Shown: piece after piece, positions 18,173-46,204 of the stretch
How the letters are laid out: each line of letters opens with the position of its first letter
Position numbering within the stretch: the first letter of the stretch is position 1
NCBI RefSeq assembly: GCF_028641065.1
Contig: NC_073398.1
Location: 28,582,001 to 28,646,000, forward strand
DNA length: 64,000 bases
Direction: 5' to 3'
Source of the DNA: Leucoraja erinacea
Lineage: Eukaryota
Made by a program: the position numbers and the translations under genes
Notes under the pieces: model-generated
Databases searched by the model: none
What the model saw: the letters and a program-made list of their open reading frames with translations, nothing else
Told to the model about the DNA's origin: nothing

Positions 18173-18859
18173 AGCTTCTACCACCATCTCCACCCCTCCA
18201 TTCCCCTGCAACATGTTCCAGCCACTCACCTTCCCTGTATAAAACCTTGCCTTGAGAGTGTCCTTTAAACCTTCGCCCTCTCACCATAAATCTATGCCTT
18301 TCAGTATTTGATACTTGCGCTCAGGTTAACAAAAACAACTTTGAATATCTATCCTAGCTAATAATATAACAATTTCTATCAGGTCGCCCCTCAGCCGCCG
18401 AGGCTCCAAAGGAAAGAATCTAAGTTTGTCCAAACTCTTTCTACTCACTACTGTCTCTAAACACAAGGCAGCATCCCGACAAACTACTTGCATTGGTTGG
18501 CATTATCATGTATAACCGAGATTCAGTGACCATTTTTTGTTTTGCGTGCAATCCAGTCAATTCGGAGCACATCATGTAGTGTAATGGGGAAAATAAACAA
18601 AGCTTCGCATCCTTCCTGTAAGTGTAATGCAGCGACTAGCGTTGCACACAATGCTCCAACATGTGGCGCAAGCAATGTTTTCCACAGCTATAAGTGTATC
18701 TGTCAAGATGCTGTCTAATGGACACTGGTCTTCCAGATGTTTGGGATGGGGTATTTAGCCCCCATGTGCAGCCACTGGGTGAACTTACCCACCCACAAGA
18801 TGCTGGGGCATTGACTCCCATTCCTCTGGGCTCACAGTTCCCCGGGATACTTTCCCCAG

Positions 18860-19230
18860 TACATTATGCGGGAGACTCCGTGCCTTCTTGAGTTTCTATG
18901 GAGACGCGTAGTAAACAATAGTTTTCCGCCTGAGCTTGGAGCTGGGGTTTGGATTGCCCGCCTCTGACTGAGTCTGAGCCCGACCGAGCGGCGGGACCAG
19001 GTATGTGTCTACACGGGGAAGGAGGGAGGGAGAGATTGAACGAGAGCCCCTGGGGCTGGATGCCGGCGCTGTGCAACAGTATGTGCGGCTCTGGGAGCGT
19101 CTGGTCCGGGCGGGGATCCAGCGGGTGGGTCGGTGCCTGGCCCGGGGCTCCCACACCCAGCTCTCACTGTCCCGGGCATCTATCTCCCCCTCTCGCCGCG
19201 TCCAGCCCGGGCGGTGGGAACTTTAAACAC
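18860..19230 (+). promoter_or_regulatory. CpG-rich promoter and first non-coding exon, probably of SMKR1
   Basis: CpG/GC-rich patch; X-box GTTTCTATGGAGAC 18892-18905; forkhead GTAAACAA 18911-18918; donor CAG|GTATGT at 19000/19001. Confidence 0.6.
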
Positions 19231-20488
19231 ACGGCCAGACACAGAGAGAACAGCTGATGCTGGAGCATTGAGCGAAACTGTAACGTTGTCACAGGTCTGA
19301 AGAAGGGTCTCGATCCGAAACAGCTGATGCTGACCCGTCCCTTCCCTCCAGAGATGCTGCCTGTCCCACTGAGTTACTCCAGCATTTTGTGTCTATCTAC
19401 AGGGAACTACACACACTCACTGGGTCACGATTGTTTTAAAGGAACACAGCGAGTCAGGCAGCATCTCTGGAGATCACGGATAGAGGCGACGGTTCGGGTC
19501 AGGACTCTTCTTCAGACTGATGCAGTTCCTCCAGCACTTTGTGTTTTGCTCGTTACTTTGCTCGCGGGAATTGGGAAGAGGCGGGTGAGCGGTGACATTG
19601 AGGGTCTTTGTCCGGAGAGGAGCGAGGCGGCGGAACTCACGAAAACACACAGAGAGCCGCTGAAGCAATTGCTTCGGAGAGATGCATTGAACAAGGGGCT
19701 CTGCTGGTCAGGCAGCGTCAGTCCGAGGAAGGGTCCCGACCCGAAACATCGTCTGCCCATTCCGTCCACAGACTTTGAATTCCCCCAGCACTTTGTGTTT
19801 TCGCCTCTGCAGCCTCTCGTGTGGGAGGCTAGATGAATGCACGGTTGAGGGGAGGTGAGGTGGAAGAGTTAATGAGGAGCACGGAACAGCATAACCCCGC
19901 TGGGCCGAGTGGCCTGGTTTGGGTGCGCTGACTACCTTCAAAACTGGGGAAGGTCGCTCAACTGAAATGGTTGCTTCTGACTTCGAGGATGTTGTCGTCC
20001 TACAAGATAGAGCATTGGAGGAATTCCAGAGAGGCATGACAGTGGAAGGGGAATTTACTAGCGGTTATCTGGAGGAGGTTGCAGACATGATCGATAGGGC
20101 ATTGTGAAAGGGATGGTAGTATAAACATGCCTTTAACAATGAGGCTAGGGCAGTGTGTTGGGTAAGTATTCGATATAGATCCATAAGGGGTGGTGGGAGC
20201 TCAGTGCGTGGAACAAGGTGGGAGCTCGTGTTTGTAGGTGAAGGTGAGACTCTGGAATAAGGAAGTCTTAAAATGCCATGGAGCAGGATGAGGGGTTCAG
20301 CAGGATATGGGCTGAACTTGAAGTGGAAGTTGGTTGATATTATGGAAGTTGTTGTGAAGACAGATGTTGTAAAGACTAGACATTGGCTGCGCTGCTGATG
20401 AATGTCTGATTGTTGTCTCTTTCCAGGAGATGGTTGTCCTCGAACAGGACTAGGAAGATTCCCACTCTGTGACTCAAACAGTTTTACA

Positions 20489-21641
20489 ATGGTACAGTAT
20501 TGAATCCAATTTTTCTTCTTAAAGGGGGTTTATTCTTTAATGAAGGAAAATCTTCTCCATCCATCCATACCCTGCCCATTATATCAGTAAGTTCTATGCC
20601 TCTACAAAGGAATTTTGGATACCTATCCACTGGTTTGTTGACCAGTAATAGATGGGTGATGCGTACCAACAATCTTGACCTTCCACATATTCTTCTCCTC
20701 AAGCAGAGAGAATTATGGAGAATTAGGCCACTTTATTATGGCAGTGCCTTGGGTGTGAGGCATGGTTGGGTGAACGACTGAGATGGTAAACAGATCTCCA
20801 TCTGCCCCAAGGTTGTGTTTAGATGTAGGTTTATTGTAGTCACGTGTACCAAGGCACAGTGCTATATTTTGCATGCTATCCAATCAAGTACAAACTTGAA
20901 GGGAAAGATACAGAGCGCAGGAGGATGAGGGGTGATCTTATTGAGATGTACAAATTCATGAGAGGAATAGATCAGGTAGACACACAGAGTCTCTTGCCCA
21001 GAGTAGCGGAATCAAGAACATTTGGACCGGTACAAGGATAGGACAGTTTTAGAGGACTATGGGCCAAACGCAGGTAGGTGGGGTTAGTGTAAATGGGACA
21101 TGTTGGTCAAGTTGGGCCAAAGGGCCTGGGCCATACAATGTCTCTACCACTATGAATATAGTTCTCGGCATTGTAACGCATTAGTTCCATATAAAAAGTC
21201 CAATGTCCACAGGTTGGAGAATCAGGACTGTAATCTTGCTCATAGATGGATCATTCAGAAGCCTGACAAGAGGAAGCTGGAAGAGGGGAAGAGTCTCTTG
21301 GGCAACTAGTGGTGGGTAGTAGGGACATTTGGCATCAGGGACCTTTCCATCATGAGCGATCATTTTATTGGGAAAAAAACCAAGTTGCCTGCTTTTTGTT
21401 GCAGCCCGGCAAGGGAAGCAAGCCCAAGGCACAGAATACAGGCGGCAAGAAGAAGAGTGGGAAGAGGGCCGCCGGGAGCAAGAAGAAGAAGAAGAAGGAG
21501 AAAGCTTCCCAGGTGGAAGTGGACATCATGAGTCCTGCAGCCATGTTCAACCTGTATTACATCTCTCACAATGTGCCTACCTGCCTTGCTTATCGAGGCT
21601 TCCTCTGGCCTGGAAGACCCAAGAAGAAAGGACGGAAATAA
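20489..21641 (+). CDS. SMKR1: Small lysine-rich protein 1 (~79 aa)
   Basis: Main exon 21405..21641 after ttgcag: PGKGSK...[33 protein letters not shown], matching the SMKR1 motif [20 protein letters not shown]. ATG is inferred as the last 3 nt of exon 20427..20491 (ATG|gtacag). AATAAA at and after the stop. Confidence 0.85.
21405..21641 (+). CDS. SMKR1: SMKR1 main coding exon
   Basis: 237 nt ending in TAA; conserved SMKR1 core motif. Confidence 0.92.
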
Positions 21642-27800: not shown

Positions 27801-30800
27801 CATGATAAGTTTCCCTGCACGGATTGCTACTGGTTCCAGGACCTATCATCGGAAGTACAGACACAATGATTCCTCACACAAACATCCAAGTGCATTGTTC
27901 CCGTCATCCTCAATTCCCTTCCTCTCCTGAAGGTGCCACCACAGTGCAGATGTCCACTATCCTCTTCCCGCGGAAGCTGCAACTTATTGTCTGACTATGC
28001 AGCAGCGATGCATGTGGTCCTCTGCTTGAACGCTACCTCATCTGCTTAGGATGTGTAGCATTCATCCCGGATTGACCTTGTCTCACCAAATCAATTCAAG
28101 GTCTGAATGGGTAAGATTTCCTTCCCATTGCAGAATCACAGAGTGGTTACAGCAGGGAAGGAAGCTTTTGAGACCATTAAGTTTACACCAGCCCTACATT
28201 AGGACAGTGAAGTGAGTCATCCTCTTCCCATAGCTCTTTATGGTATTTCCATGTTACCTATTCAGCTTTGTTTAGAATATAATCAAATCTGCTTTCACTA
28301 CCACATCCTATCTGTCCGATTCTAACCACAACCTGTAAAAAATGGTGCATTACTATTGACACTGGGAATCAATCACCTTTAATCTTAATCTGCAACAGTT
28401 ATCCCATCTTTCATGTTTTCTAGATTTCTAATAAATCTCCTCACAACCTCCTATGTTGTTCCAGTGAGATCAAAAGTACTTCCCCAATGTACAGGTTTCT
28501 CTTCCCGAGAATCAATTACTTCAATTTCAGAAGTCCTGATAGAAGTATATAACATTTTCAGAGGTATAAATAGGATAAATGCAGTTAGATCTTCTTTCCC
28601 AGGATAGAAATGTCAATTAGTAGAGTGCAGAGTTTTAGGATGAGGGGGCAACATTTAAAGTTAACATTCAAATTTAAAGAAGATATTTGGGGCAAGTATT
28701 TTTACATGGACTGTGGTGAGTGCCTGGAATGCACTGCCAGGGGTAGTAGTGCAGGCAGGGCACTACAATAGTGCCATTTAAGAGATGTTTGGATAGGCAC
28801 CTGTATAAACAGGGAATGGGGGAATGTAGCAGACAGATAAGAGTTGGTCTTGGCATCATGTTCAGTACAGACATTGTGGGCTGAAGGGCCTGTTCCTGTG
28901 CTGCAATGTTCTTTGAGGCTAGTCCTAGTTTGCTTCACCTTTATATAATGAATGGTTTAAATTAACTGAATACTATTGAGATCAAGAGTTCAGATCTCTG
29001 AATTATTACTCCAGCAACATAGCCCATTCTGGACTATAATGCCACCCACATTTCTGCCGAATGCATTCAGTCATTATATTCAGCTTCAATATTCCAAGGA
29101 TAGAGGGAACAAGACATCATGATTAGCCACCAGACCGTTAATTTCTGGAGGCTAAGGCAGTGACAGCTACAGCTATACGGATTTAACCCTGGAATAGGCA
29201 CAACAGTGGTGGCTACTGTGGTCAAATAGTTTTCTGGATAAATATACAATCTGCAGGATGGACATAGAAACATAGAAAATAGGTGCAGGAGTAGGCCATT
29301 AGGCCCTTCGAGCCCGCACCGCCATTCAACATGATCATGGCTGATCATCCAATATGATCATGGCTGATCATCCAAACGCATTGGGTTGGGCAACATCTGT
29401 GGATGGAAAGTTCTCAAAATTACAATCTCAAACACCAACCATTCCTTTGCCCCCACAGATGCTGCTTGACCAGTTGAGTTTCTCCAGCAGATTGTTGCTT
29501 CATATTCCTGCTTCTGCGCTCTTCAGAGTGTCTCCAGCTCTCTGAATCCCACTGCCTAATGGTCCCACTTCTGGCCATGAGAGGAATATACTCTTATTTT
29601 AGGGCACTTCAAATTTTCCTCGGAGGACAACTGGAAAAGCACAGGCTTGACCAAAAGCCCATACACGAGGCCACATATTCACACTACAGCTTGTGAAAGA
29701 AGGAAGGAAAATGGGATGCGGAGACAGGGAAAACAAATTTAAATTCCCTCACGAACCTCCAAAGCCGGCATCAAAGTTCCTGTTGGCATCGACCCCAAAA
29801 CATTTCCCTCCGGGGGCTACAGACCTGGTCTTGCGCCACATTCGATTCTATGGAAATTACACAAGATATTAATCCCAGCAGTGGAGAGACAGAGGTGCTG
29901 CAATAGTTATTTTGAGCTTTCAAGAATGCTAACACCCATTCTCTAAGCTCATGAGGGAAACATAATGTTGTGATCTGGCCACACAGGGATGCTACAATAT
30001 TCGTTCTCAGAAATCACAAGAATGCTCTAATACTTATTTTTCCAAAATTCTCTTGCCTAACTTTTCTTTTGGTGATGTTATGATCTTTTTCCTTTGAGCT
30101 AATATTATCTTTCTCTTGATAGATACAGAAAGCTGAAAGCTGGAGTAACTCAGAGGGACAGGCATCACCTCTAGAGAGAAGGAATGGTTGACATTTCGAG
30201 TCGAGACCCTTCTTCGGATTGAAGAAGTCTGAAGAAGACTTTCAGGTCCGAAAATGTCTCGACCCGAAACATCACCCATTTCTTCTCTCCAGAGTTGCTG
30301 CCTGTCCCGCTGAGTTACTCCAGCTTTTCTGTGTCTATCATCGGTTAAACCAGCATCTGCAGTTCCTTCCTACACATTATCTGTTTCCTGTTTGTCAAGA
30401 CCTTTTCTGTGGGTTTTCTGTTTTGTCTTAAAGCATTACATATTGCATGTAAACTATATTGGAGGAATCAGGGAGTATTAGTGAAATTATTGTTTTAGTG
30501 TTTTCTTTTGAACATTGAGGTTGAGGGGACACCTGATAGAAGTTTATAAAATTATGAGAGGCATCAATTAGGTAGACAGAATGGATTGTTTTACACTGAG
30601 AGCAGCAGATGCTGGTTAACACCGAAGTTAGACACTTGCAGGAGGAACTCAGCGGATCACAGTATATGTAATGAATGGGAGATTGGGAGGTATAGGGGGT
30701 GTGCACGTAAGGTCACTGGGTCATAGGGCTTGACGAACGGAGCCGCTCAATCCATCTGGAGGACATCCGTAACTTCCGGTATATGTTATTAATGCAAGAA

Positions 30801-33800
30801 ATGCGTACTTTCCTACCTGTTAAAAACCGCCAAAATGTTGAATTTTTGCGCTGTAAAAAATTGTGGAAGTCGGGGTAAGTGTGAGAGACATGTACCCAAC
30901 TTCAGAATTCCAAAAGTGAAGTGAAATGAAGGTAAAGAGAGAAGGGACTACAGCGAGAGTTGAAGGGACTACACTGCATTTCATTATTTATGTTTTTCTT
31001 GATTCCCTTTGGTATCTAATAAGTCTCAGAAGTGATAAACCTGACTGTAAAATTTGCTTCAGAAGCGTTTTATTTTTGTATGTAAAAACCCACTTGAGAA
31101 CCATGGGCGCTTTAAAAAATTTACAGCCAGATTTATCACTTCTGAAACTTTTTAGATGCCGAAGGAATCAAGAAAAAACACAAATAATGCCTTAGTTGAT
31201 GAAATGCAGTGAGCAAACGGCCAATGTTCGCCAAGCACTCAGGCTGTTGTTGTCCCTTCAGCTCTCGCTTCTATCTACCGTCATTTCTCCTCACTTTTGG
31301 AATTCTGAAGTAGGCTAAATGTCTCTCACGCTTATCCCGATTTCCATCATTATTTACAGCGCAAAAAGTGGCAATTCCGACTAGTTTTAACGGGCCCGCA
31401 ACGCTTGAAACAATGGTCACCTGCACTTACCTGCAGTTCATCGCGTGTACTCCAGTTGGCGTAGTGTATCAGCAGCACGGGTCATGGGTCGTGACCCGAC
31501 TGCCGTGAAACCTCCCCAGTAGCTCCTCGTTCGTTTTCTGGGCCAAGTTAAAGTTGGACTATCCCACGAACAGTTAGTTACCTGATAGATGGTTACCTGT
31601 GTATTTACTAACATCTTCAGCACCAACAGGTGACAGGTGTCCAGCGTGTTCACAATAAGGGGGCAGAATGACGGGTGGGGACTCGGTGTCTATGAGTGAT
31701 ATAACCACACCAGCTGTTCCAAGCGCAGCCCACCACACTGGGCGGCACCAAGCTGGGCGCCCCGGGCACTGACCTTGGTGTGCGTGTAGACATAGCCGTC
31801 GGGGTTCACCACGATCTCCATGTAGATGTCCATTCTCTGCAGCAACGACGTGATGAAGGTCTCCTGGCCGTAGTCACTGGCGATCTACAGGAGAAAGACA
31901 GAACATGTGGCGAGTACTGTGATAACATTGGATCTGGACGAACATGAGCGGACTCGCTGTTCCCAGTGTCTACAGTAACACGTGGAACCCGAAGGGCGTT
32001 CGGTTACATAACCTCTGCTGCCTCAAACGCAAGAAGAAGGAATCACACCTCCCCGGAATTTCGCCCGTATCTCTTCTCTCCGTATCTTTTCACATCTAGC
32101 CTTTGTCACTTACTCCACCATTTGCCAATCAGACCTCCCTCATCTTGATCCAACTGTGCTTTGCCGCGCCCCCACCCCCTTTCTCTCCTCCCCACCCCAG
32201 TTTCAAGAAGGGTGCCAACCTGAAATGCCGCCTAACCATTGCCTCGTCCACTGGTGTTAGCTGGCCCGCTAGATTCCTCCAGCACTTTGTGTTTTGCTCT
32301 AGCTCCCAGCACCTGCAGTTAGTTGGTTCCCCGTAGCTGGCTGGTTACCTTGTTCGCCATCCAGATGGCGCTGGCTGGTGACACCCACTCGCGGGCGTGG
32401 ATTCCGCTGTCGATCCAGATGGCTGGACGCTGCCTTCCCCCGGTGCTGAACTTCACACAAGTAAATGGAAGACGATTACAGGCGGGGACGAGGATTGGGA
32501 CTGGAGCGGATCGACCTCGGCTTGTTCTAGGTTAGGTGGGTACCCGGCTTCGTGTTGGTTCGTTTTCTGGGAAGCGGGATGATTTTCAATGGGATAATGG
32601 AAACCAACTCGTGGCACAGTTGATAAAGCCGCTGCCTCACAGCACCAGGGACCCGAGTTCGACTCTGAACCCGGGCACTGTCTGTGTGGAGTTTGCACGT
32701 TCTCCCTGTGACCGTGTGGGTTCCCTCCGGGTGCCCCGGGTGTCTTCCCACATCCCAAAGAGTTGGTTGTAGGTTAATTTTGGCCTCATTGTGTAGGGAG
32801 TGGATGAGAAAGTAGGATAGCATAGAACTAGCGTGAATGGGCGATCGATAGTCGGCGTGGACTCGGTGGGTCGAAGGGCCTGTCCCATGCTGGAATGTCC
32901 TATGACATTGTTGCCATAGAGGGAGTACAGAGAATGTTCACCAGACTGATTCCTAGGATGTCAGGACTTTCATATGAAGAAAGACTGGATAGACTCGGCT
33001 TGAACTCGCTAGAATTTAGAAGATTGAGGGGGGATCTTATAGAAACTTACAACATTCTTAAGGGGTTGGTCAGGCTAGATGCAGGAAGATTGTTCCCGAT
33101 GTTGGGGAAGTCCAGAACAAGGGGCCACAGTTTAAGAATAAATGGGAAATCTTTTAGGACTGAGATGAGAAAAAAAAATTTTCAAAGAGAGTGGTGAATC
33201 TCTGGAATTCTCTGCCACAGAATGTAGTTGAGGCCAGTTCATTGGCTATATTTAAGAGGGAGTTAGATGTGACCCTTGTGGCTAAAGGGATCAGGGGATA
33301 TGGAGAGAAGGCAGGTGCGGGATACTGAGTTGGATGATCTGCCATGATCATATTGAATGGCGGTGCAGGCTCGAAGGGCCGAATGGCCTACTCCTGCATT
33401 CTATGTTTCTATGCTGCATCTTTCAATCAGACTTCCATTTACACATTCTGTGGCTAATCTGGAGGGACTGGACAGGACCAGACTCCATAGGAAGTTTGTG
33501 GAAACTGTAACGGCAATAATAGTGTGGAAATCTGGCACTATGGGTCTGCTGAAGCTTTAGTAACGGAGCTGGTGAGAAGTTGCAACACTGACTCTCTCCA
33601 CACCTTCAGCACGTAGAGCGGCCGCCCTTCGAACGACGTCCCAATCTCTAGCTTCTGCAGCAGCCCGGGAAACGCAAAGACCAGATCGTCCATCCATGTG
33701 TAAATCTGCAGCAAAGGTGAGAGACAAGTTAAAACCTAACACGCAAAGAAGGCAGACGACCAGGCGGGCCGGGGAACATTCAACATTGGGTTAAGTTACA

Positions 33801-38033: not shown

Positions 38034-38477
38034 ACATTCTGCACCGGTCTTGGTGAATTTGCTCAACAATTGAAGATGGGATGCTAAGTCTTAACGACTC
38101 AACATAAAGATCTCCCACACTTTAGTCTGATTTCTGGTAAACTAATATTAATGGACCCGCTCGAAAATTACAAAGAACTACAGATGCTGGTTAATGAACA
38201 AAATGACATAAAGTGCTGGAGTAACTAACTCAGCAAGTCGTGCAGCATCTCTGGAGAACCTGGAGAGGTGACATTTGGGGTTGAGACCCTTCATCCCGTC
38301 CCGACATGTCAGCTACACATATTCTCCAGAGATGCTGCCTGACCCGCTGAGTTAACTCCAGCGCTTTGTGGCCACTTGGAAGTTACTCCGCCACTGGGCC
38401 ACACAAACTTACCCCACAAAACCTCCATGAACACAAACGGCCACCAGCAAAGCAGAGAAAACCAAAAGTTTCCCCAT
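24630..38477 (-). CDS. CPA2: Pancreatic procarboxypeptidase A2-type (M14A), complete, 11 exons, 418 aa
   Basis: complement(join(24630..24814,26635..26719,27643..27842,29757..29847,31774..31884,32349..32450,33604..33705,35150..35248,36057..36191,36813..36894,38413..38477)) = 1257 nt. Has signal peptide [14 protein letters not shown], zinc motif HARE, RKTR, NRN, IHSY and catalytic FELR. CPA2-type features: GGSID, SFAFE, and the extra Cys pair in GYKC/GSIC. Confidence 0.88.
25242..25750 (-). mobile_element. Gypsy LTR retrotransposon 3' remnant: integrase C-terminus, polypurine tract, 3' LTR (25242..25458)
   Basis: [11 protein letters not shown]...RTRAGR; [17 protein letters not shown]; LTR TGTGGCGG...AATAAA...CACAACA. 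Confidence 0.85.
26635..26719 (-). CDS. CPA2: CPA2 exon 10 ([22 protein letters not shown])
   Basis: 85 nt. Confidence 0.92.
26888..27174 (-). mobile_element. Solo LTR (Gypsy-like) in a CPA2 intron
   Basis: TGTAGCGGCA...TGACGCCACA imperfect inverted termini; internal AATAAA; flanks ATAT/AAAT. Confidence 0.7.
27643..27842 (-). CDS. CPA2: CPA2 exon 9 ([11 protein letters not shown]...[12 protein letters not shown])
   Basis: 200 nt; H196. Confidence 0.92.
28535..28915 (+). mobile_element. Old CR1 3' fragment
   Basis: LIEVYNI.RGI; gtggtgagtgcctggaatgcactgcca; gggctgaagggcctg tail. Confidence 0.7.
29757..29847 (-). CDS. CPA2: CPA2 exon 8 ([24 protein letters not shown])
   Basis: 91 nt. Confidence 0.92.
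30694..31517 (+). mobile_element. Non-autonomous ISL2EU-type element with two inverted THAP-exon remnants
   Basis: Both ends are homologous to the two ends of 40808..45611. Plus strand reads [29 protein letters not shown]; a second THAP copy lies on minus at ~31190-31375. Confidence 0.85.
31774..31884 (-). CDS. CPA2: CPA2 exon 7 (IASDYG...[11 protein letters not shown])
   Basis: 111 nt. Confidence 0.92.
32349..32450 (-). CDS. CPA2: CPA2 exon 6 ([19 protein letters not shown]..)
   Basis: 102 nt; zinc ligands H69/E72; AAG acceptor. Confidence 0.92.
32610..32894 (+). mobile_element. tRNA-derived SINE
   Basis: B-box GAGTTCGACT, conserved body. Confidence 0.75.
32905..33412 (+). mobile_element. 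CR1/HER LINE 3' fragment (young copy)
   Basis: [26 protein letters not shown]; near-identical to 1507..2008. Confidence 0.9.
33604..33705 (-). CDS. CPA2: CPA2 exon 5 (IYTWMDDLV...[14 protein letters not shown])
   Basis: 102 nt. Confidence 0.9.
34110..34386 (+). mobile_element. tRNA-derived SINE
   Basis: GGTTCGATCC B-box, conserved body and tail. Confidence 0.75.
35150..35248 (-). CDS. CPA2: CPA2 exon 4 (VLIESEK...[11 protein letters not shown])
   Basis: 99 nt. Confidence 0.9.
35660..35997 (+). mobile_element. CR1 3' fragment
   Basis: ttcccgatgttgggg...gtggaattct...(TATTGTC)n tail. Confidence 0.85.
36057..36191 (-). CDS. CPA2: CPA2 exon 3 (LDIWRSP...DVRVP...MIEDLQ)
   Basis: 135 nt, activation peptide. 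Confidence 0.9.
36813..36894 (-). CDS. CPA2: CPA2 exon 2 ([13 protein letters not shown]...HLQ)
   Basis: 82 nt, GT-AG. Confidence 0.9.
37233..37260 (-). ncRNA. Minimal type I hammerhead ribozyme motif (Penelope-type)
   Basis: Minus strand ggu-CUGAAGA-AUGGUCUCGACCC-GAAACGUC-acc; stem I ggu/acc. Confidence 0.55.
37478..37920 (-). mobile_element. tRNA-derived SINE with an internal insertion (~37575-37720)
   Basis: (GTTTA)n tail and body in reverse. Confidence 0.7.
38413..38477 (-). CDS. CPA2: CPA2 exon 1 (signal peptide [22 protein letters not shown])
   Basis: cacc ATG G Kozak context; gg|gtaagt; 65 nt. Confidence 0.9.
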
Positions 38478-39617: not shown

Positions 39618-40400
39618 GTTCATAAGTTCTAGGAGTCGAATTAGTCCATTCGGCTTATCAAGTCTACTCCGCCATTCAATCATGGCTGATTTATCTTTCC
39701 CTCTCAACCCCATTCTCCTGCCTTTGCCCCATAACCCCTGATACCTGTACTAATCAAGAATCTGTCAATCTCCACCTTAAAAATATCCATTGACTTGGCC
39801 TTTCTTCTCATCAGCTTTCTAAAGGTACATCCTTTTATTCAGAGGCTAATGTTTCTGGTCCGAGACTCTCCTTGGTTCTTAGTTTCTTGGTCCTCCAAAA
39901 TATTCCAAATGGAATTTAAACTGGAGGTGGTACCCCATCTCCCCACACACCTCTCTCCCCCCCCCATCACTCTCTCCTCCCCCTCTCCATCTCCCTCTCT
40001 TCAACCCTCTCCCTCTCCTCCCCCTCCTCCTCCCACCCCCATCCCTCTCTCCCCCACCCCCTTCCCCTCTCCCTCTGCCCCTTCCCCCTACCCCTGTGTC
40101 CCTCTTCCACCTCTCTCCTCCTACCCCTCCCTCCCCACTCTCTCCCCCTCTCTCCCCCCCCCACCCCTCTCCTCCTCCTCTCCACACTCTTCCCCCTCCC
40201 TCCCCTATCCCATCTCCCTCCTCCCCCTCCCTCCCCCATCCCAACTAGTGGAAACATCCTCTATACATTCACTCTATCCAAGGCTTTCACTATTCGGTAA
40301 GATTTGATGAGGTGCCCCCTCATCCTTCTAAATTCTAGTAAATACAGGCCCAGCGCCTACAAATGGTCATCATATGTTAACCCAATCATTCCTGGGATCT
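39618..40400 (-). mobile_element. CR1 fragment interrupted by a LINE 3' tail and a C/T-rich tract
   Basis: CR1 3' UTR and RT end split at gactctc|...|actagtggaaac. Confidence 0.75.
39935..40242. repeat. Polypyrimidine low-complexity tract
   Basis: Almost only C/T over ~300 bp. Confidence 0.9.
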
Positions 40401-40908
40401 ACATGAGGTACTGCATCATGAAGGTTGCATATATCATCAAGCATCCTCGCAATTTGGCCAAAGCCTTCATCATGACAGTATCATCAGGCAGGAGATGCAG
40501 AAGCCTGAAGTCCCCCACCACCAGGCTCAGAAACAAGTTCTCTCCAGAACTATTGGTTTGTTGAACCTTCCTGCAGAACACTAGTCCTACTTCAGCAAGG
40601 AAATACTACAGGCCTCTTGCACTACCACAAACTTTTCTAATTATGCTTTTTCTCAAATGTTTTCTTTACCACAATCTTCTGCTTTTTACCATCTTGGCTA
40701 ATTTATGTCTGATTCATGTTTTTTTGTGTTGACAGAGTCTATGTGCCTGTGATGTTGCTGCAAGGACATTTTCATCATACCTGTACCTCACTTGTGCATA
40801 TGATAATAGGGCCCTTGCACGGCAGGCGAGGTCACGACCCCTGAATCGTACTGTTGCCATGCAACGCCTTCTGGAGTACAAGCGGTGAACTTCAGGTAAG
40901 CACTTCCT

Positions 40909-43291
40909 ATGGCTGCCATTACAGCGGGCCCGTCTTCTGTCCCGGCATCCGCAGTATGCTTCCAATCTAGCAACTGAGGAGTATGCACGATATGTCCAAA
41001 AAGTCTCCTTGATTGGTATTAAACCTTACTTAGTGCCTGAAGCTGAGAAATCCCGTGACATCTCCCAACTACCAGAACTGAATTCCATGGACATCATGGC
41101 CTATCTCATCTCAACACCCAGTTCATACACAGCAAATAATTTCCAGGAGTATAAGTCATCGGAGGCTTATACTCCTGGAAATGGTTGGTTACATGACACT
41201 AGTGTATATATCCCAAATCTTGTCCACACTTACGAGTGGTGTGTGGAAAAGTAAGTTTTCTATCATTTGTTTTGCTATTACTTATTGGAAGCTATTTTAA
41301 CACTTTCTTTCTTTCTTTTCAATTATCCTCGTACTATAGGTTCCTCACTCGCAAGCTGTAGGCGTGACTTCTAGGTCATTGCTGCCGTGGGTTATTGGGA
41401 CAAATGGCCAGATTTGCAGTGCCCGCTGTGATTGCTCGGCAAAGTTTGTACCCATGTAGCAATGCTTCTCTTTGGTATTGACGCTGGAGTACGGATTCGT
41501 GAGAAAACAACAGTCACCCAGGTCAAAGCATATTGGATGGAGCCAACAAGAAAGCAAGTTAAAGCTGCGCCTGTCAGCAAAGTTGACTTCTCTTCAGCAG
41601 CAGGGGAAATGATGGCTTGATGCTGCCATAGATGGGACAGAGCCGAAACAGCAACAAACAAGAGATGAAGCTCCAACAGTGGCATCCGCTTCTTGTCCAA
41701 CATGGGAGCTGCTGCAGGACAAGCAATGAGTGAACTTTTGTTGGGCCTGTCCCTGGCCACAACAAAATCGACCATAATTAGCTCTATTGACCCTTATGCA
41801 GCAAGATTTGTTCCTTCCGAGACTGTTAAAAAAGAATTTCCACCCATTCTTACAGACTTAAAGGACAAAGACACATTCAGCTTAACATATGCTGATCGGC
41901 TAAAGAGGTGTGATATTGATTATTGTTACAGAGGAGGGGGCAAAGAATGTGGAGGCACACACTCGTCAGCAAGCCAAATCAAATATCTGGTTTTGGTATC
42001 GGGCAGGCCGCATTACAGCATTAAAACTGAAAAGTGCTTGCAGGACAAATGCAGGTGCTCCTTGGTTCTTGGTTTCTTGGTCCTCCAAAATATTCCAAAT
42101 GGAATTTAAACTGGAGGTGGTGGACGGAGAACTTAAGCCAGAAAGGGTTATTGGGAAGCTACTTTAAATTTAGATGCATCTGGTTGGGTAACTATAGTAG
42201 GGTGGAGATTATTCCATGCTTTAATTGTGCGGGGGAAGAACGAATTGCTGTACACATCTGTCTTTGTAGCTGGAATCACAAATTGGATTGAATGCCCTCG
42301 TCTGCTCCTAATTGGTTTGGGTTTGGTGTAGGTCTTGTAATCTATGTCGAGCTGACCATTTAAGATTTTGTAAAAACAGGTCAAACGGTGAGCTTCACGT
42401 CTGTCTTGGAGAGGGTTCCACCCCAGAGAATTCAGAAGTTTGGTAACACTTGCTTCTCTCTCATAGGTGTTAGTAACAAATCCTGCAATTAGTCTGATTA
42501 AATCGGAGTGCTCCTCCGATCTGTTCAGATTAAGCACCGAGGCAACAAGATGGGGCTGTGATCATGAACAGCAAGCAAGACAAGCTTATGACGATTATAT
42601 GCTGTACTGAACACTCCGGTTTCATAGTGACTCAGGACTGACCATAAACCGCAAGTACCCTCATTTGGGTGCAACACCGGATGGACTGGTTCAGTGTGCT
42701 AAGCATTGTTGCGGGGATGATGTTTTGATGTTTGTGAAACTAAATGTCCGTTCTGTAAGAAGGACATGTCTTTAATGTACACTGCAGAGGACAAACAGTT
42801 TTGTCTTCATGATGTGAATGGTGAGTTTCATCTGTCCAATGAGCATGCTTACTACTACCAGGTCCAAGCCCAAATATTTGTCTCGGAGAGACCGTTTTGC
42901 GATTTTGTGGTATGGACCAGTGATGACATCCGCCCCATACAGAGCATATAATGGGTAATCATACTTTTTGGACAGATGCTGTAGCTGCTGCCATTCACTT
43001 CTTCAATTTAGGTGTGTTACCAGAGCTTGTTGGTGAGCATTTTACCAGCCCTCCCAAAAATATGTCAAAGAATGTCATGGAGACCGATGACCAGGATAAA
43101 CAAAAAGTGGTGCTACTGTCAGGAGGGGGAAAGCGGGAAAATGATCATGTGATAACCCAAAGTGTTTTATTTTGTGGTTTCATTTTGAATGCCTGAAATT
43201 GCTGGAAAATTATGAGACACCAAAAAAATGGTTTTGCCCAGATTGTAGGCTCCTCCCAAAATTACAAAAAAAAGTTCCCAAAAAGAAATGA
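40909..43291 (+). pseudogene. Decayed ISL2EU second gene: SWIM zinc finger + YqaJ/lambda-type exonuclease + ING-like PHD finger
   Basis: CDC..CTHVA; TRQQ...W...RAGRITA; WGCDHE; SGL..HLGATPDG; ETKCP; YYYQVQAQ; WCYC..GKMI.CDN..C..WFHFEC..KWFCPDC. Intron 41251..41339, several frameshifts and stops, and a LINE insertion. Confidence 0.85.
42063..42480 (-). mobile_element. LINE 3' fragment (L2/Crack/Daphne-like) inserted in the YqaJ gene
   Basis: SVTKLLNSLGWNPLQDRR..RL..FYKI...SFFPRTIKAWNNL; TCCT duplicated on both sides; removing it restores RTNAGAP-AISLIK. Confidence 0.8.
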
Positions 43292-43607
43292 ACTGCAACT
43301 GTTGTGCTGAACAGGTTTCTCATAAATACCAAGTCCAGCATTTATATACCAAGTTAGCCTTGCACTGCATAAAACCACATAGAAGGACATTTTGTGGTCA
43401 TTTTCACACAACAGTCTCTTTTTCAAACTGTTAAATTTAAGTTTAATGCTAAAGATTTTGAAGTGCACTTTAACTTCTGTGTTTGTTATTCAATGATTTG
43501 ACAATTACTTACAATTTCATCCATAATAAATGCTCATGAGCCAAGTAACTTTTTTGAGAATTTTTATTGTTCGTATATGCCCCATACGAAAGCAAAACTA
43601 TCTGCCC

Positions 43608-45452
43608 CTACTGTGAAACTATGGCTGCATTTAAGTTGAAAAGTGCACAACAGATCCTTGCAATTTTATCAATTTTGGGTGCTTGAATTTCAGCGTTGGT
43701 CATCATGTACTCCAGTGGTACAGTATTACTTAGAATTCGGTATTTTTGCCTGACACCACCAATCACACGCTTTACGTGAATGCGTAAATGTGCAAATTCA
43801 CGAGATTTTTCCACATCCAGCGCAGATAGTTCTGCTTTCCCACTTGTAATTGCAAGGATTTCTGCTTCACAACCGTAAAATCCGGCACAATCTTTCATGT
43901 CAAAACCGCGATCAGCAAAAATGACATCTCCAGGGAGCAGGTGGTCAAAAAAGTTAGATGAAAGTGTAATTGTATTATCTGTGCCGCTGTCCTCCAATGC
44001 CGCAGATACAAATGAAATAGCACCACTTGGTGCTATACCTAATACAAATTTGATGGTGTTATGGTGTTTATAGTTCAACAAAGTCTGGGTGCGCGCATCT
44101 AAACTTGTAGGTCTATCACAAAATACTTCAAAGCAATCTATAATCACTGCCACACGCTTTCCTAATGTCTGCCGAAATTGCATGGGCATGGTCTTCCACA
44201 GAACCTCTCTTTCGGGCCAAGCAATTAACTTGGATATGCCGTAAAGGGCATCAAGCCCAGTATTGAACACGCGTGATATTGTGGATTCACTAACAAAGAA
44301 TCGATACGCAAGATCTTCATGAGTCACTGCAAGTCGGAGCTTCATCAAGATGATCAGCAACTGCTGAAAATATGTTAGTGAATGTCTAGTGGGGAGCTTG
44401 TCCTGAACATAATTGAAGACCACCATCAAAATGGTAAACGTTGGTAAACCCGTGTAGTACTCAACCTTTTTGTCGTCCTTGGAAAAGCTTTCTTGTGAAA
44501 ACTTAATTTGGTCTGCTTCTTGCCTTGCTTTAGCGAGGTCTTTATTGTTGCTGGCTGCTTGTGCTTCCAGTACTGTTATGTCTGCTGCACACATTTCTGT
44601 TTGTGTTGATGTGTCCATTGTTTCTTTGACTGGTGTTTGTGTTTCCATGTCAAGTTCATGGTGTACTTGCAGCTCCGGTTCAAAGTTTTCATAATCATTA
44701 ACCTGTTCGACTTCATCTTGCAGAGCTACCTGTTCAACTTCATCTTGCAGAGCTACGAGTGCCTGAGCTGAGATCAAATCGGCCTTCGTACACTCTCTTT
44801 TTGTTGAACTAGTATGGCGGTCTTTACGTTTAACGTTACGTCCCATATTCACAGTTGGTGCCCAATCAGGATTGGTAACATTGTTCCATGCTGCAGGTTG
44901 TTCTGTAATGCAGAAATAACTAAACAAATAATTGTGTAGGCATTAAACAAAAATGTATATTTTGGCAAATAATAAAATGTCCTGACAGCTTAAACACTCA
45001 CTCCTTTCAAAGATATTGCCAATTTACTGAGTTGGATTATGTCCAATTAACAGCTAACAATTATGCCATTCCTTGTATCTGGGTGAAAAGTAATTCAAAC
45101 CCACGTATGGTTTGCGATTTTCTAATGATAAATTTAGCTTCAGAAGCGTTTTCTTTTTGCATGCATTTATCACTTCTAAAACTTTTTAGATACCAAAGGA
45201 ATCAAGAATAAAAAACATAAAGAATGCCTTACTATTGATGAAATGCAGACAGCAAACGCGATAATTCGCAATTTTTTCAATCTTGATATCTGTACGGCCA
45301 ATGTTCGCTAACCACTTTAGCTGTTGTTGTCCCTTCACCTCTCGTTTCTCTTTACCATCATTTCTCCTCACTTTCGGAATTCTGAAGTACGATAAATGTC
45401 TCTCGCGGTCACCCCTATTGGCACAATTTAATACAGCGCAGAAATTGACCAT
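43608..45452 (-). CDS. THAP-HTH-DDE_Tnp_4 transposase, 2 exons, 504 aa, catalytic E->K
   Basis: complement(join(43608..44902,45233..45452)); donor A|gtaagg, acceptor ttacag|. THAP C-C-W-CxxH plus PDWAPT; YYTGLP; LMKLRL..DLAYRF.VSESTISR (HTH); IIDCFE; YKHHNTIK; ADRGF; RIHVKRVIG. Confidence 0.85.
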
Positions 45453-45754
45453 TTTAGTGGGTTTTTTACCAACTGAGAAAGTTGGTGTTGCGTGTGTTAG
45501 CAGTGTAAGCCGGAAGCTGCCTTGTACCCCAGAAGGCGTGAGCGACTCCGTGCGTCACGTCCTTTGACCTGATGACCTTCCGTGCAACCTCCCCCCTCTC
45601 CCTCCCTCCCTATACACAAATACTAAACATTAAAACACGTGCAAAGGGGATAAACCTGATAGACGGCACTAAAATTCCCTCAAGGCCGAGCCAACCCCGT
45701 GGATCAGGTTGTGGTGTTGATGTTGACAGTCAGTGGGGCCTAGTCTGGTCCAGC

Positions 45755-45815: not shown

Positions 45816-45824
45816 TGGGCTCCT

Positions 45825-46165
45825 GTAGCCACGGCTCGGTCCTGCTTGCGCTCGCGGGTTATTGTCGCTGTTGCCTAGCGACACCAAGATGACAAATGCT
45901 GTTATAAACTGTTTCCTTCTGTTGATGTGCCTTTGTGTGGTGATTAATGGGGGAATGAAAGGTCAGATGGTGTTATCCCCGGGTATATTGACCCCCCCCC
46001 CCCCGGTTGACCCCGGGCCCCGCCCACGTCACGGCTCAACTTTCCCGCCTCTGTTCAAACACGCCCGGCCGACGTCTGCGGAAGTGCTCTTTACGTCCGG
46101 TGACGGCGGCGGTGGCGGCGGACTGGGTGTGAGTGGAGGGGTCACGTCGGTGAGCGGACAGGTGA
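45825..46165 (+). promoter_or_regulatory. TMEM209 CpG-island promoter and non-coding first exon
   Basis: CpG-rich; X-box GTTGCCTAGCGAC 45870-45882; E2F-like TTTCCCGC 46041-46048; ETS GCGGAAGTG ~46078-46086; donor CAG|GTGAGT at 46161/46162. Confidence 0.7.
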
Positions 46166-46204
46166 GTGGAACCAAAGATCAAATAGCAGATGTAGGATCT
46201 TTGA

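Follow-up and report, generated by a model that had tools for sequence, protein, structure and literature searches.

ISL2EU DNA transposons encode, beside their transposase, an accessory exonuclease that ends in an ING-type PHD finger, and this finger is a family-wide trait of the elements. The job of the second ISL2EU protein is stated as unknown in the available text of PMC4482050, and a conserved methyl-lysine cage on it suggests how a DNA transposon might be able to read the chromatin of its host. On sequence and modelling grounds the family finger is predicted with good confidence to bind H3K4me2/3. Our preferred reading, to which we give a probability of roughly 45%, is that the finger brings the accessory protein to promoter-marked nucleosomes, most probably those at the element's own CpG-rich ends. 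The window analysed here, a 64,000-nucleotide stretch of the Leucoraja erinacea genome, contains a dead example of this exonuclease–PHD design; coordinates below are positions in the window.

An ING-type finger across the ISL2EU family

Among 123 homologous accessory proteins (4 from one search and the best 120 of 809 from another, with one common to both), 93 have the full PHD pattern in their C-terminal half, and several of the remaining 30 have cut or frameshifted fingers. The arrangement was also assessed in 80 metagenome loci, about half of them from one assembly: the finger is found in 51 of the 65 loci that continue for 500 nt past the end of the nuclease. Where 1500 nt lie behind the nuclease (54 loci), a tail-to-tail transposase is present in 44 and both finger and transposase in 40. 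This family-wide occurrence rules out a chance motif. The nuclease motif residues E, D, E and K are kept in 81–82 of 82 accessory proteins, and the AlphaFold model of one homologue (P0033; pLDDT 85.6) matches lambda and LHK exonucleases. Pooled over 13 disjoint pairs, the PHD codons give a dN/dS of 0.37, with synonymous sites near saturation.

Sequence, profile and model all describe the finger as a cross-brace of the Cys4-His-Cys3 kind that has the spacing and fold of ING fingers. When a profile was built from 82 accessory proteins, picked from those with the cage Trp, its top matches were 19 ING-family structures (E 2.6e-23 to 5.7e-19), ahead of the best non-ING PHD at 1.1e-8, and the PHD of the P0033 model overlays the ING2–H3K4me3 structure 2g6q at 1.2 Å over 49 columns. 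The finger shares with the ING PHDs (ING1-5, Yng1/2, Pho23) about 45% identity, the Cys4-His-Cys3 spacing, the aromatic–M–W cage and the D. By contrast, it is fused to an exonuclease and not to the ING N-terminal domain, for which Pfam gave no match on P0033, P0035 or P0024; its first cage residue is often W, and the ING serine and second acidic residue are not kept. The finger resembles an ING PHD, and the accessory protein is not an ING. When a PHD-only profile was run against 1.84 billion proteins, the best 150 matches were a mixture that included 42 accessory proteins, recognised by a match to the remainder of the accessory profile, and 19 proteins ING-like by motif; a tree of 59 fingers over 50 columns, comparing ING with transposon PHDs, did not place the origin of the finger. 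One further protein, P0396, is a DUF6589 protein with the same ING-type finger, possibly from another mobile element that uses it.

In ING2 numbering, we take D230 and E237 to be the acidic residues for H3R2 and S222 to be the cage serine. The first cage position is W, Y or F in 74 of the 93 fingers, M is kept in 70, D or E in 80 and the cage W in 82, with all four kept in 59; the complete set also occurs in 32 of 40 fingers from the loci, a sample that excludes near-duplicates and partial fingers. D or E is retained in 79 of the 82 fingers with the cage W and in 1 of the 11 without it, counts that come from related and not independent sequences. The ING glutamate before the W is present in 19 of 93 accessory fingers compared with 18 of 19 ING-like proteins (picked by motif; one, P0257, is probably not an ING), and the serine position is mostly E or D. 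Because the second acidic residue and the serine are not kept, affinity or specificity may differ from that of ING proteins. According to the available text of PMC4225485, M226 and W238 are cage residues of ING2, and the H3K4me3 reader TAF3 has W at the first cage position (a residue printed there under an ING2 label). In the available part of PMC6979384, only 31 human PHD constructs out of 123 showed H3-tail binding in arrays, with ING fingers among the binders. An ING-type finger, conserved across the family together with an intact exonuclease site and a kept cage, makes H3K4me2/3 reading likely. The 11 W-less fingers (P0004, P0006, P0007, P0008, P0020, P0023, P0026, P0034, P0039, P0057 and P0116) keep their zinc ligands and have mostly lost the Asp as well; they are candidate natural negative controls or candidates for a changed ligand.

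The PHD finger on the ISL2EU accessory protein is apparently undescribed. In the available text of PMC4482050, PMC4122938 and PMC9179366, the second ORF is given without a named PHD, whereas the skate and family ORF has one, and we found no mention of a PHD on this ORF in the available text of PMC5718144 or PMC9587614 either; the word 'phd' occurs once in PMC9179366, though in none of its available ISL2EU passages; Repbase reports and subscription journals lay outside the scope of the search. The supplement of PMC4482050 (2015) mentions YqaJ 13 times and PHD 0 times, two of the three supplement files of PMC4122938 hold no PHD mention (file 1, outside our scope, may list domains), and the main text of PMC9341512 contains no ISL2EU data. 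Automatic annotations already call some accessory proteins PHD-type or ING-like, and the database name 'ING3-like' for P0083 and P0103 rests on the finger alone. Annotations of invertebrate genomes call for caution here, since many of their 'ING3/ING4-like' or 'PHD-type' genes belong to transposons.

A broken copy in the skate genome

The skate element spans 40808–45611 (4804 bp) and is bordered in the sequence by AT target-site duplications at 40806–40807 and 45612–45613. Contigs of run X1 cross both junctions, which rules out an assembly artefact for the element and its finger. Its imperfect terminal inverted repeats start with AGGG and have a common TTGCACGG core, with a GA-rich expansion at the right end, and the outer bases of the target site are A and A, giving the W-AT-W form found at 14 related elements. 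The accessory gene lies on the plus strand and a THAP/HTH/DDE_Tnp_4 transposase on the minus strand, tail-to-tail. The element is a member of ISL2EU by four features: the AT duplication, inverted repeats with a purine start, a THAP+HTH+DDE transposase and a YqaJ second ORF. For the repeats, the usual purine start in ISL2EU is GG. Within the PHIS superfamily, ISL2EU elements have the same AT duplication, short inverted repeats, length of about 4.8 kb, THAP-HTH-DDE transposase and YqaJ second ORF in the available text of PMC4482050, PMC4122938 and PMC9179366, the first of which gives the target as A|AT|T. ISL2EU is reported absent from the sharks examined in the available text of PMC9179366 and PMC4482050, and the skate copy, with its candidate domesticated transposase, adds the group to cartilaginous fish.

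The accessory gene of this copy is a pseudogene. Its 5′ part lies on the plus strand at 40919–41254, with approximate exon borders taken from tblastn and alignment to the full-length homologue P0024. The main exon (41340–43291, plus strand, start approximate) contains a SWIM-like Cys/His motif, the YqaJ/lambda-type exonuclease, which matches Pfam YqaJ and Viral_alk_exo, and the PHD finger. Alignment to the closest homologue, P0033, gives 69% identity (334/485 aligned residues), 10 frameshifts and a 422-bp insert, and alignments to P0001 and P0024 have breaks near eight of these frameshift or insert places. The insert, an alignment gap at 42060–42481 on the minus strand, upstream of the finger, is a high-copy 3′ fragment whose depth is very high and whose edges at 42061 and 42482 are loose ends; we label it LINE-type from a translated motif, Pfam having given no match. 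With about 10 frameshifts and the LINE fragment, the skate copy is unable to make the finger, and the broken accessory gene together with a lost catalytic E in the transposase rules it out as an active element. A 64-bp stretch, 98% identical, at 39868–39931 and 42058–42121 represents the tail of the LINE-type repeat that interrupts the accessory gene.

The sequence-only reading had placed an ING-type PHD finger with one frameshift at 43108–43291 (plus strand) and had listed W, M, D and W as retained, and both descriptions are borne out. The first half of the finger lies in one frame (W 43108, C 43111, C 43117, M 43141), the frame breaks at about 43147, and the second half runs in the next frame from C 43148 to the stop at 43289–43291. 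Against Pfam PHD the second half scores weakly (E 0.001, 19.5 bits, below the 24-bit cut-off); against the PDB, ING-family PHDs fill its first 19 places (best E 2.6e-8), and TAF3 reaches 0.008. The cage W, M and W and the D are all present, and L stands in place of the acidic residue that ING fingers have three positions ahead of the His. A host ING gene or pseudogene is ruled out, since the finger is fused to a nuclease inside the element.

The element sits between two divergent genes. On the minus strand, a carboxypeptidase gene has Pfam exons at 24.6–36.2 kb and a likely signal-peptide start at 38477; on the plus strand, downstream of the element, four exons from 46.9 kb match Pfam PF09786, which we take to be the TMEM209 family. 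These matches define the later exons of the TMEM209-like gene, and its first exon (donor at 46161), judged from sequence, probably lies in a CpG-rich block at 45820–46190 (371 bp, GC 0.59, CpG o/e 0.91, 29 CpG), head-to-head with the transposase. The block is 209 bp from the element end at 45611, in agreement with the earlier estimate of about 210 bp to a TMEM209 CpG island. The depth of contigs guessed to derive from RNA is shallow at 46010–46190. At 18791–21640 the window has a second promoter-like CpG island, preceded by DUF3402 exons and followed by a small lysine-rich ORF, presumably SMKR1-like.

A non-autonomous relative of the element ends, with pieces 71–88% identical, lies in a carboxypeptidase intron at 30694–31517 (right end approximate) and adjoins a CpG-rich stretch of the gene body; it is made of ISL2EU end sequences with internal inverted repeats. 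Read depth at 45060–45439, the part of the large element that matches this relative, is hundreds of times the gene-body depth, which suggests a MITE family of very high copy number. Four runs also have contigs and reads that join 41267 to about 44953, the mark of an internally deleted family derivative in which both gene bodies are missing.

A candidate co-opted transposase

The skate transposase is encoded on the minus strand by exon 1 (45233–45452; THAP) and an open exon 2 (43608–44902; HTH_Tnp_4 and DDE_Tnp_4), which splice to a 504-aa ORF. This ORF is identical to a protein named for Leucoraja erinacea (P0124, LOC129707898). The joined ORF is present in 1.6-kb Logan contigs; in run X9, which we guess to be RNA, contigs match the transposase with 0–2 differences and one ends at the splice acceptor, 44902, and run X22 covers the transposase body only thinly and the 46010–46190 bin not at all. 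The third catalytic residue is K and not E (codon 451), a change that 7 of the 129 transposases carry, six of which belong to the skate copy's own cluster, and the protein deviates from the family at 23 of 105 conserved columns.

The transposase has 0 breaks in 1515 nt, compared with 10 frameshifts in 1487 nt of the accessory gene (binomial p 0.0009), and other family copies differ from the skate copy by about 9–13% in DNA (contig pieces). An Amblyraja protein, P0246, is 95% identical to the skate transposase and has the same private changes, and the differences between the two fall less in HTH+DDE (5/297) than in the linker (14/106; p 1e-5); measured against a second Leucoraja/Amblyraja pair, HTH+DDE conservation is not significantly higher (5/297 versus 11/296, p 0.14). 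We regard the skate transposase, from its sequence features, as a candidate co-opted, catalytically dead gene, head-to-head with the TMEM209-like gene. An unbroken, spliced, dead ORF common to Amblyraja means that retention can explain where the copy is found, and its place beside the TMEM209-like island likely reflects retention of a co-opted transposase and is not proof of targeting. Against domestication, this copy may have carried an already broken accessory gene when it inserted, and other skate copies also have open transposases. Two further skate copies (P0126 and P0251) differ from each other at one residue, which suggests a younger subfamily in skate.

HARBI1 is a domesticated Harbinger-like transposase, and the skate gene resembles genes of that type in having a DDE_Tnp_4 ORF that has stayed open, with a splice position that is constant between the two skate genera. 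It differs in being of ISL2EU type with a THAP domain, in the loss of the third catalytic residue and in lying still within a whole element with both ends, with selection partly shown.

Where the finger may act

Both ends of the complete ISL2EU elements analysed are rich in CpG. We identified candidate ends in 21 loci besides L064, which was left out as a duplicate of L028, and set aside 7 whose ends are weak or palindromic (L013, L039, L045, L050, L054, L073 and L079), leaving 14 complete elements whose ends are clear and which have AT duplications, all from one CpG-depleted assembly and representing about 10 subfamilies. Both terminal 200-bp segments are CpG-rich in 14/14 (o/e 0.65–1.03, medians 0.86 and 0.84), against a median of 0.35 inside the element and about 0.4 in the flanks; the terminal 200 bp of the skate element have o/e 0.73 and 0.67. 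Such ends are as expected if each of the two convergent genes has its promoter in one end. Any element with terminal promoters would be expected to have them, and an action of the finger there is what we infer. With both ends CpG-rich in every complete element, the donor's own ends would be the most obvious H3K4me3 site for the finger.

Our preferred reading of the finger follows from this layout. If the promoters of the two genes lie in the two element ends, an active copy would carry H3K4me3 at both of them; the PHD finger could then select H3K4me3-marked, and hence active, donor copies, and could position the exonuclease where the ends or the donor break get trimmed. The accessory protein is not known to contact the transposase. 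Donor selection of this kind would be an unusual form of transposon self-control.

A less probable reading is target steering: by anchoring the transposition complex on nucleosomes with H3K4me3, the finger would make new insertions land next to promoters. Steering of this kind would bear on the seeding of regulatory DNA and on gene-transfer tools. RAG2, a kelch protein with a non-canonical PHD that directs RAG to chromatin, is a precedent, and readers occur on further transposon proteins, among them the PHDs of CR1 and the chromodomains of chromoviruses. In the available text of PMC10462144, RAG2/RAG2L is likewise the partner protein of the transposase in a DNA transposon with two genes and has a C-terminal PHD; the RAG2 PHD is reported there to bind H3K4me3, to determine where binding occurs and to enhance cleavage. 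ISL2EU differs in its transposase superfamily and in having a nuclease with an ING-type finger, and the parallel with RAG2 is an analogy, not homology. The kept cage and the ING-type profile and model agree with steering, as does the skate copy 209 bp from a promoter-like island, given that 21 of the 1171 W-AT-W sites in the window lie within 250 bp of its two promoter-like islands. Against this, 206 of the 1171 lie near some CpG-rich block of at least 350 bp, the site was noticed post hoc and selection may have kept it; as evidence of targeting, this single noticed insertion is suggestive at most.

The sequence-only reading had proposed that ISL2EU may use an exonuclease–PHD partner to target promoters and had named enrichment of insertions there as a check. 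The partnership and its kept cage proved to be family-wide; targeting to promoters gained no support. In the 14 complete elements, a weak proxy for insertion preference, target flanks are not CpG-richer than distant flank (rank test p 0.20), and target sites reach a CpG o/e of at least 0.6 in 3/14 cases compared with 40/154 distant windows (p 0.75). The window's non-autonomous relative falls inside an intron, that of the carboxypeptidase gene. Medaka ISL2EU copies are spread evenly on chromosomes in the available text of PMC9179366, a pattern of little weight here, its resolution being too coarse to decide. On the evidence here, donor ends are a more likely site of finger action than targets.

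It is unlikely that the finger serves transcription and not cutting or joining, reading H3K4 methylation so as to keep the element's promoters open or shielded from silencing. CpG-rich ends in a CpG-depleted genome would suit such a role, and ING proteins recruit chromatin-modifying complexes, but the finger is fused to a nuclease with a nearly invariant catalytic motif, and the three Pfam-scanned accessory proteins lack the ING N-terminal domain.

We consider it similarly improbable that the finger does not read H3K4me3 and has as its ligand DNA, the transposase, a host protein or H3 regardless of its methylation: piggyBac-type cysteine-rich domains bind DNA (the piggyBac PHD-like domain) or H3 (the PiggyMac domain, weakly and irrespective of methylation) in the available text of PMC8086355, and two ING positions are not kept and the W is lost in 11/93 fingers, but very distant elements retain the surface aromatic, M, D and W as a set, the sequence is far nearer to ING than to any other PHD, and W at the first position is shared with the reader TAF3 (available text of PMC4225485).

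Beyond our preferred reading, in which the finger most probably acts at the element's own ends, a broader proposal seems to us only slightly less probable than that reading: that an ING-type H3K4me3 reader has sat on the ISL2EU exonuclease since early animal evolution, coupling transposition to promoter chromatin through donor choice, steering or both, as an independent second case of RAG1/RAG2-PHD logic.

The ends themselves show two further regularities. At L001, L004, L005 and 11 more loci the target has the form (C/G)-W-AT-W, and the ends contain GGAAG and CGTCA-like words. At L054, L073 and L079 the accessory genes lie within long perfect inverted repeats spanning about 4 kb, whereas other loci have short ends.
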